Below, piece by piece: positions 38,806 through 39,542 of a stretch of 64,000 bases of DNA; positions within the stretch are counted from its first letter, which is position 1; every line of letters begins with the position of its first letter. The notes below the pieces were generated by a model. It made no database searches, was not told the origin of the DNA, and saw nothing but the letters and a program-made list of their open reading frames with translations. The translations under genes were made by a program, and so were the position numbers. The stretch lies in NCBI GenBank assembly GCA_000165345.1, contig CM000435.1, forward strand, positions 512,001 through 576,000. The letters run 5' to 3'.

Positions 38806-39542
38806 ATGGTATGTCAAAAAAGTCCACTGAAGATTTTTATTATTAATTTGCAGGGTGTAGCTAAAAGAACTAGAAAATTTGCAGCGGTGAAACGCATTTT
38901 GAACCCCAATGATAGTAGAGTTAAACAGTAAGTTAACCAAGAAGTTCACTTTCAGCAAATATTTCAATTTCATGTAGAAATAAGCAAAGTAACAAAGTAG
39001 ATGCCCGCAATGATAGTAATGATAAACTAAGAGAAGTGTAAGTTTTAAAACTATTAAACCGTTCTTAATAATATTCCTTTAGGCCAAATGTACCTTCTAG
39101 CTTGTTTTTCAATTATAACAATAATTTGGGCCCTCCCTTCCACATCCTACTCGATACCAATTTTATTAACTTTTCTATACAGCATAAACTAGATATATTT
39201 AAGGGAACAATGGATTGCCTCGTAGCTAAGTGTATCCCTTGCATTACTGATTGTGTAATAGGGGAACTCGAAAAGATGGGTCACCGTTACAACTTGGCTT
39301 TGAAACTAGCTAGAGATCCCAGATTCAAACGTCTGCACTGTCTGCATAAAGGGACTTATGCGGACGATTGCATAGTGCAAAGAGTAACTGAACATAAATG
39401 TTACATAGTGGGAACGAATGATACCGAACTAAAGAGGCGCATACGTAGAATACCAGGCGTCCCAATAATGTATGTTACCAACCATAAATATTCGATTGAG
39501 AGACTACCGGAATCACTAGTCTCTGTTCCGCTGAAAAAGTAG
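38806..39542 (+). CDS. FCF1: rRNA-processing protein FCF1 (PIN domain), 4 exons
   Basis: Exons are 38806..38808 (ATG only), 38854..38927, 38978..39037 and 39083..39542. Donors are GTATGT/GTAAGT/GTAAGT and introns are 45, 50 and 45 nt. The product (about 198 aa) reads MGVAKRTRKFAAVKRILNPNDSRVKQ..KLREVPNVPSSLFFNYNNNLGPPFHILLDTNFINF, collinear with Fcf1. Confidence 0.7.

Follow-up and report, generated by a model that had tools for sequence, protein, structure and literature searches.

Evidence for start-codon introns in the FCF1 and HSP10 genes of Cryptosporidium parvum

Where do the FCF1 and HSP10 proteins of C. parvum begin? Both genes lie in a 64,000-nucleotide stretch of DNA (hereafter the window, which corresponds to CP141124.1:552881-616880), and in both an ATG is followed immediately by a GT, with the sequence that is conserved in the protein family resuming only some tens of nucleotides downstream. 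A first-pass annotation described this layout as a pair of 3-nt micro-exons. The analysis reported here indicates that FCF1 and HSP10 very probably both carry a start-codon intron, that is, a U2-type GT–AG intron in phase 0 between codon 1 (ATG) and codon 2. The boundaries are of the U2 type with consensus-like donors (GTATGT...CAG in FCF1 and GTGAGT...(TAG)CAG in HSP10). The position of the intron is documented in FCF1 by an intron-less contig and a GenBank protein, and in HSP10 it is indicated by gene models and by comparison among species.

The FCF1 gene and its spliced form

The FCF1 start codon (ATG, 38806–38808) adjoins the donor GTATGT (38809–38814), and the first intron extends over 45 nt to an acceptor that ends in TTGCAG. 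From 38854, the sequence GGT GTA GCT AAA AGA... encodes the conserved N-terminus GVAKRTRKFAAVKR (GVAKRTRKF...). The coordinates originally given for the ATG, the donor and the in-phase resumption after 45 nt are all correct. Two further introns (38928–38977 and 39038–39082), beyond those described in the first-pass annotation, complete a gene of four exons that encodes 198 aa and ends at 39542; the gene span annotated in GenBank is 38806–39542. The features of FCF1 are as follows.

38727–38808, plus strand: exon 1, minimum extent (79 nt of 5'UTR and the ATG); 100% match to a cDNA-like contig, which then jumps to 38854
38809–38853, plus strand: intron 1, the start-codon intron (phase 0, 45 nt, GTATGT...TTGCAG, 27% GC); absent from the cDNA-like contig
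38854–38927, plus strand: exon 2 (GVAKRTRKFAAVKRILNPNDSRVKQ...); present in the cDNA-like contig
38928–38977, plus strand: intron 2 (50 nt, GTAAGT...TGTAG, phase 2); defined by the cDNA-like contig
38978–39037, plus strand: exon 3; present in the cDNA-like contig
39038–39082, plus strand: intron 3 (45 nt, GTAAGT...TTTAG, phase 2); defined by the cDNA-like contig
39083–39542, plus strand: exon 4, coding part, with the Fcf1/PIN domain; stop codon TAG at 39540–39542

The spliced product matches the Pfam family Fcf1 (PF04900) with 114.4 bits against a gathering cut-off of 21.4 (E = 3.3e-33). This score and the N-terminus MG-x-AK-K/R-TRKF identify it as an Fcf1/Utp24 PIN-domain rRNA-processing protein, and the identity first assigned to the gene is thereby upheld by its family profile.

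Evidence for splicing comes from an ENA contig of 676 nt (ERZ21845938 NODE_10611, L014) that carries an uninterrupted FCF1 coding sequence. This contig equals 38727–38808, 38854–38927, 38978–39037 and 39083–39542 joined together at 100% identity, each of the three introns being absent precisely at its proposed junctions. Because the three intron deletions are precise and the 5'UTR is colinear, the contig is most simply read as a transcript assembly, the absent introns pointing to an RNA origin. The 198-aa spliced product is also identical to GenBank proteins KAL5367545.1, QOY40546.1, TRY50733.1 and WKS78917.1 from several C. parvum and C. tyzzeri assemblies. The proposed splice over 38809–38853 is thus confirmed to the nucleotide. 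Conversely, the description of the first exon as a 3-nt micro-exon has to be given up, since on NODE_10611 the ATG is preceded by 79 nt of 5'UTR, which brings exon 1 to at least 82 nt. An N-terminal MG is found in 93 of the 120 listed Fcf1 homologues across eukaryotes, typically as MGKAKKTRKF, and the splice therefore restores the N-terminus of the family exactly. The start-codon intron of FCF1 and all three of its junctions can be regarded as settled.

The 5'UTR of FCF1 contains, inside the stretch covered by the cDNA-like contig (38758–38787), an upstream ATG at 38758 that opens a 9-codon upstream open reading frame (MIITIVQLY*). This upstream ATG is also present in C. tyzzeri and in the chipmunk genotype, and in the latter the upstream frame is shorter.

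The HSP10 gene and its two candidate acceptors

The layout and coordinates proposed for HSP10 likewise agree with the sequence. The start codon (ATG, 59373–59375) is followed directly by the donor GTGAGT (59376–59381), the acceptor CAG ends at 59430, and from 59431 the sequence GTA AAT AAA... encodes the conserved VNKLLRTFRPIFDRVLV, with the stop codon at 59791–59793. The features of HSP10 are as follows.

59373–59375, plus strand: start codon, the last 3 nt of exon 1; ATG|GTGAGTT invariant in six species, annotated gene start
59376–59430, plus strand: predicted start-codon intron (GTGAGT...TAGCAG), 55 nt with the downstream AG, or 52 nt (59376–59427) as in the GenBank C. parvum model
59425–59430, plus strand: TAGCAG tandem (NAGNAG) acceptor; the upstream AG would give MQVNK... 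and the downstream AG MVNK...
59431–59793, plus strand: exon 2, coding part (VNKLLRTFRPIFDRVLVQR...); stop codon TAA at 59791–59793

With the downstream AG, the predicted protein of 121 aa matches Pfam Cpn10 (PF00166) with 54 bits against a gathering cut-off of 21.1 (E = 1.7e-14). The match covers residues 9–111 and profile positions 2–92 of 93, as in a Cpn10/GroES co-chaperonin, in agreement with the identity first proposed. The best solved relatives of the C. parvum protein are human mitochondrial HSP10 chains (E = 4e-13). Since the ATG and exon 2 are in different frames and an in-frame TAG (59425–59427) immediately precedes the conserved frame, the conserved protein can be made from this ATG only by splicing; the unspliced product is a peptide of 16 residues. 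Only three nucleotides of exon 1 are coding, and the exon must contain 5'UTR.

HSP10 stands head-to-head with an uncharacterised gene for 206 aa (58615–59235, minus strand). With no more than 137 nt from ATG to ATG, the two genes probably share a promoter region and the 5'UTR of HSP10 is probably very short. At its other end (window 58607–58624), the 206-aa gene overlaps by 9 nt with the 3' end of a tyrosyl-DNA phosphodiesterase gene on the plus strand (GenBank spans, L015 7716–9251 and 9243–9863).

Further evidence for the HSP10 intron comes from a comparison of six species of the genus: C. parvum, C. meleagridis, the chipmunk genotype, C. canis and the Cryptosporidium genomes from SRR18693150 and SRR31860986. 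The sequence ATG|GTGAGTT is invariant in all six, whereas the 5' flank diverges, and ATGGTGAGTT is equally invariant, 52–55 nt upstream of the conserved frame. The intron measures 53–55 nt across species, and read-through from the ATG meets stop codons in all six. In the GenBank annotation, the gene span exceeds the coding sequence by 52 nt in C. parvum, 53 nt in C. meleagridis, 55 nt in the chipmunk genotype and 54 nt in C. canis. The predicted splicing of HSP10 is thus well supported by gene models and by species comparison.

The interior of the intron is also conserved. A block CTATTAAGCT at 59412–59421 is maintained among the species and is probably the branch region. Over 59392–59421 as a whole, the intron is unusually conserved across the six species compared with the 5' flank, with the motifs TNTAAGRT and TTTAAG, the second of which falls within CTATTAAGCT in five of the six. 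This internal conservation is probably imposed by the branch site and by spacing, given how short the intron is.

Less certain is the exact 3' end. The intron ends TAG CAG | GTA, and the two AG choices differ by one codon (Gln2). TAGCAG at 59425–59430 has the form HAGHAG, and tandems are also present in four other species. NAGNAG acceptors of the HAGHAG type are often used at both sites. Splicing from the same ATG to the upstream AG (59376–59427, 52 nt), which would yield MQVNKLL... and a protein of 122 aa, or the use of both AGs, is accordingly a serious possibility, though one that falls short of an even chance. The upstream AG is the one that current GenBank models take: QOY40558.1, WRK33412.1, WKS78929.1 and KAL5367557.1 of C. 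parvum (P0064) and OLQ17912.1 of C. hominis (P0067) all read MQVNK, and an intron of 52 nt follows from the 421 nt annotated for 122 aa. The C. parvum annotations are said to be based on evidence and to have been curated by hand with the aid of RNA-seq (bioRxiv 10.1101/2021.01.29.428682). Against this, use of the upstream AG would place a TAG stop right after the ATG in the chipmunk genotype (ATAGTAG) and in the SRR18693150 and SRR31860986 genomes (both ACAGTAG), and in C. canis the upstream AG is missing altogether; it would therefore be the downstream junction that is conserved and functional. The downstream AG (MVNK or MTNK) is the one taken in GenBank for C. meleagridis, the chipmunk genotype and C. 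canis. With this junction, moreover, the C. parvum protein aligns collinearly and without a gap to full-length human HSP10, starting at residue 3.

Taken together, the ATG-TAG reading in three species, the single AG in C. canis and the collinearity with human HSP10 make the downstream junction (MVNK) somewhat more likely to be the main one in C. parvum. The acceptor at 59430 given in the first-pass annotation is accordingly favoured by the comparison, whereas the current C. parvum and C. hominis models lie 3 nt upstream. Branch-point distance was considered as a means of choosing between the two AGs and proved indecisive. In FCF1 orthologues, possible branch motifs such as CTAAC in C. ryanae stand only about 9–10 nt away from the AG, and a steric argument against the upstream AG of HSP10 therefore fails. 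Searches for the spliced product gave no help in this choice. The spliced junction TTACTAATAAAATG N{0,3} GTAAATAAACTATTAAGGAC had no match in JGI metagenome contigs, neither the MV nor the MQ form was seen on short ENA or Logan contigs, and the 121-aa MVNK... protein had no exact match in a collection of 15 billion proteins. A cluster of near-identical HSP10 proteins contains MQVNK, "partial" QVNK and 76-aa forms.

Unspliced readings and chance matches

For FCF1, read-through of the first intron can be envisaged on paper. The first-pass annotation held that an in-frame stop just before the conserved sequence leaves splicing as the sole route to homology; this is correct for HSP10, with its TAG, but not for FCF1, where a TAA (38803–38805) lies in frame directly 5' of the ATG and none occurs between the ATG and the conserved sequence. 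In C. parvum, intron 1 of FCF1 is a multiple of three and has no in-frame stop, and an unspliced transcript would read M-VCQKSPLKIFIINLQ-GVAKR..., with 15 residues inserted after Met1. Retention of intron 1, with the same ATG and read-through of the 45 nt, is nevertheless very unlikely. Exactly these 45 nt are missing from the cDNA-like contig, the segment has GT...AG ends and a GC content of 27% (that of the window is 32%), and the inserted residues would interrupt the family N-terminus, which is MG-K/V-AK in the 93 homologues counted above. In addition, the orthologous intron has 46 nt in the chipmunk genotype I, 44 nt in both C. ryanae and C. bovis, and 60 nt in C. serpentis. The ATG|GT junction is kept in five of five species, and read-through is frame-shifted or stopped in four of them, that is, in all but C. 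parvum. Spliced, the FCF1 N-termini of the four other species are predicted to be MGVAKRTRKF, MGVARRTRKF or MGKIKRTKKF. Given these frame-breaking orthologues, the contig and the family N-terminus, the open frame of intron 1 in C. parvum is a coincidence. Retention is already contradicted and could survive only as a minor isoform. Together with the data on HSP10, the comparison shows that the ATG|GT junction is conserved throughout the genus in both genes.

Without an intron, HSP10 would have to be initiated either internally at Met46, giving 76 aa, or from a non-AUG codon within the frame that is open from 59428. Models of this kind exist in GenBank (XP_667056.1 and TRY50500.1, of 76 aa, and XP_628413.1, which is "partial" and starts at Q), and no HSP10 transcript was seen in the collections searched. 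Such a start is hardly credible all the same. The Cpn10 profile spans residues 9–111, and initiation at Met46 would remove half of the domain. Residues 3–45, with the PxFDRVLV strand and the mobile-loop region among them, can be aligned to human HSP10; in six species this N-terminal part is conserved as protein, in contrast to the 5' flank. The invariant ATGGTGAGTT also lies 52–55 nt upstream in every one of the six. The truncated models instead bear out the warning that annotation based on open reading frames would shorten HSP10: the 2004 Iowa II model is "partial" and starts QVNKLL, and those of C. hominis TU502 and C. tyzzeri are cut down to 76 aa, from Met46 onwards.

The motif ATGGTRWGT occurs four times in the window, compared with 1.33 expected, and four of 100 shuffles reach four occurrences. 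This count alone is weak evidence for start-codon introns; what carries the argument is the transcript-like contig together with conservation across species. The possibility that the two ATG|GT junctions are chance splice-site look-alikes upstream of truncated or misassembled genes gains a little from this modest enrichment and from the two of the four matches that are not start-codon introns, but it is so improbable as to be negligible, given the exact transcript-like support for FCF1, the retention of both junctions across species diverged by up to ~30% in protein and the identity of the window to a finished assembly (0 mismatches between window 28806–64000 and C. parvum chromosome 7, CP141124.1, GCA_035232765.1).

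The two remaining matches were rejected individually. The match at 21955–21963 on the minus strand (ATGGTAAGT) is the donor of an internal intron (...SQNQD|gtaagt...cctaaag|G ISMLIECTT...), and its ATG is not a codon; the match at 61675–61683 on the minus strand sits inside the intron-less coding sequence of L22e. No further start-codon intron besides those of FCF1 and HSP10 was found in the window with ATGGTRWGT or with a relaxed search for ATGGTR followed by a long Met-less open reading frame.

Introns are present in three of the ~27 annotated genes between 28.8 and 64 kb, namely FCF1, HSP10 and one other, which encodes 188 aa (52031–52695, minus strand) and has two introns (GTAAGA... and GTAAGT...). 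The ribosomal-protein genes S3, ubiquitin-L40 and L22e in the window have none. Elsewhere in the window (42577–43596), an alpha/beta-hydrolase is a single gene of 339 aa in C. parvum and two genes (152 and 158 aa) in C. tyzzeri (L012 13769–14739); the split is probably due to a frameshift or an assembly artefact.

The intron class and its meaning for annotation

Start-codon introns were described in 2006, when a survey of vertebrates, arthropods, fungi and plants reported that phase-0 introns are sharply over-represented between codons 1 and 2 (Nielsen and Wernersson, BMC Genomics 7:256; PMC1626468). They are over-represented in short, Lys-rich, Ser-poor and conserved proteins, and their proposed origins are a TG|G proto-splice site or a role of the 5'UTR as a shuffling module (PMC1626468). 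The introns of FCF1 and HSP10 resemble this class in being phase-0 GT–AG introns directly after the ATG, and the G at position +4 fits the TG|G proto-splice site. Both genes also fit the profile of the host proteins, which is typical of the class and not required: FCF1 has 198 aa with 9.6% K and 4.5% S, and HSP10 has 121 aa with 9.1% K and 4.1% S. The cases differ in their setting, as the 2006 survey took in no apicomplexans and Cryptosporidium is intron-poor, with introns in ~10.8% of genes and a mean intron length of ~99 nt (PMC4637869). Micro-exons, which are very short internal exons, share with the two genes only the small amount of coding sequence (3 nt) on the 5' side of the intron. With at least 82 nt including 5'UTR in exon 1, FCF1 calls for no special mechanism of exon definition.

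A plausible course of expression can be outlined for both genes. Exon 1 would consist of 5'UTR and AUG, and the spliceosome would thus meet a first exon of normal size (at least 82 nt in FCF1). The 5' splice site would be TG|GTATGT in FCF1 and TG|GTGAGT in HSP10. Removal of the 45-nt FCF1 intron would join AUG to GGU and give MGVAKRTRKF..., and removal of the HSP10 intron (55 or 52 nt) would join AUG to GUA (MVNKLL...) or to CAG (MQVNKLL...). Both ATGs have an A at –3, and before splicing the donor TG|GTRWGT would supply the G at +4; after splicing, the G at +4 would be the first base of exon 2 in both genes, in HSP10 with the downstream acceptor. Productive translation of HSP10 would depend on splicing, because the unspliced product has only 16 residues, and in FCF1 introns 2 and 3 would enforce an equal dependence. 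A scan of the whole window with Rfam at the gathering threshold gave no matches and hence no sign of known non-coding RNAs in the introns or their flanks. We infer that the two introns, which measure only 45–55 nt, have no special function and are retained 5'-proximal introns.

The closest known parallel is human HSPE1, the first exon of which contains only the first codon, according to the part of PMC5006179 that cites Hansen et al. (2003). With the downstream acceptor, C. parvum HSP10 is collinear with its human counterpart from residue 3, and the intron position would thus be common to both genes. Both also stand head-to-head with a neighbouring gene. The human gene has four exons and a bidirectional promoter with HSPD1, whereas C. 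parvum HSP10 has two exons and the 206-aa gene as its divergent neighbour. The NAGNAG tandem acceptors provide a second parallel, in that TAGCAG at the 3' splice site of HSP10 changes the product by one codon; they differ in that the upstream choice would be lethal to the HSP10 reading frame (ATG-TAG) in three related species. The chances are about equal for and against the reading that combines these points, namely that the MQVNK models of C. parvum and C. hominis are one codon off and that the main junction is the downstream CAG, at the position common to human HSPE1, the intron being an ancient one that has been retained. If this is so, the upstream AG of TAGCAG would be ignored or would give rise to a minor NAGNAG isoform.

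The start-codon introns of FCF1 and HSP10 are already annotated, and the class to which they belong has long been described. In the GenBank models of C. parvum chromosome 7 (CP141124.1; QOY40546.1 and QOY40558.1), FCF1 is identical to the four-exon model and HSP10 also has an ATG-only first coding exon, the one difference being the HSP10 acceptor 3 nt upstream (MQVNK instead of MVNK). Since current C. parvum annotations model both genes in this way, the result adds nothing new on biology. Start-codon introns are a classic trap for gene calling based on open reading frames, and the two genes serve as a check on annotation quality. What the analysis may contribute beyond this is a possible correction of one codon (Gln2) or a NAGNAG isoform at the HSP10 acceptor.
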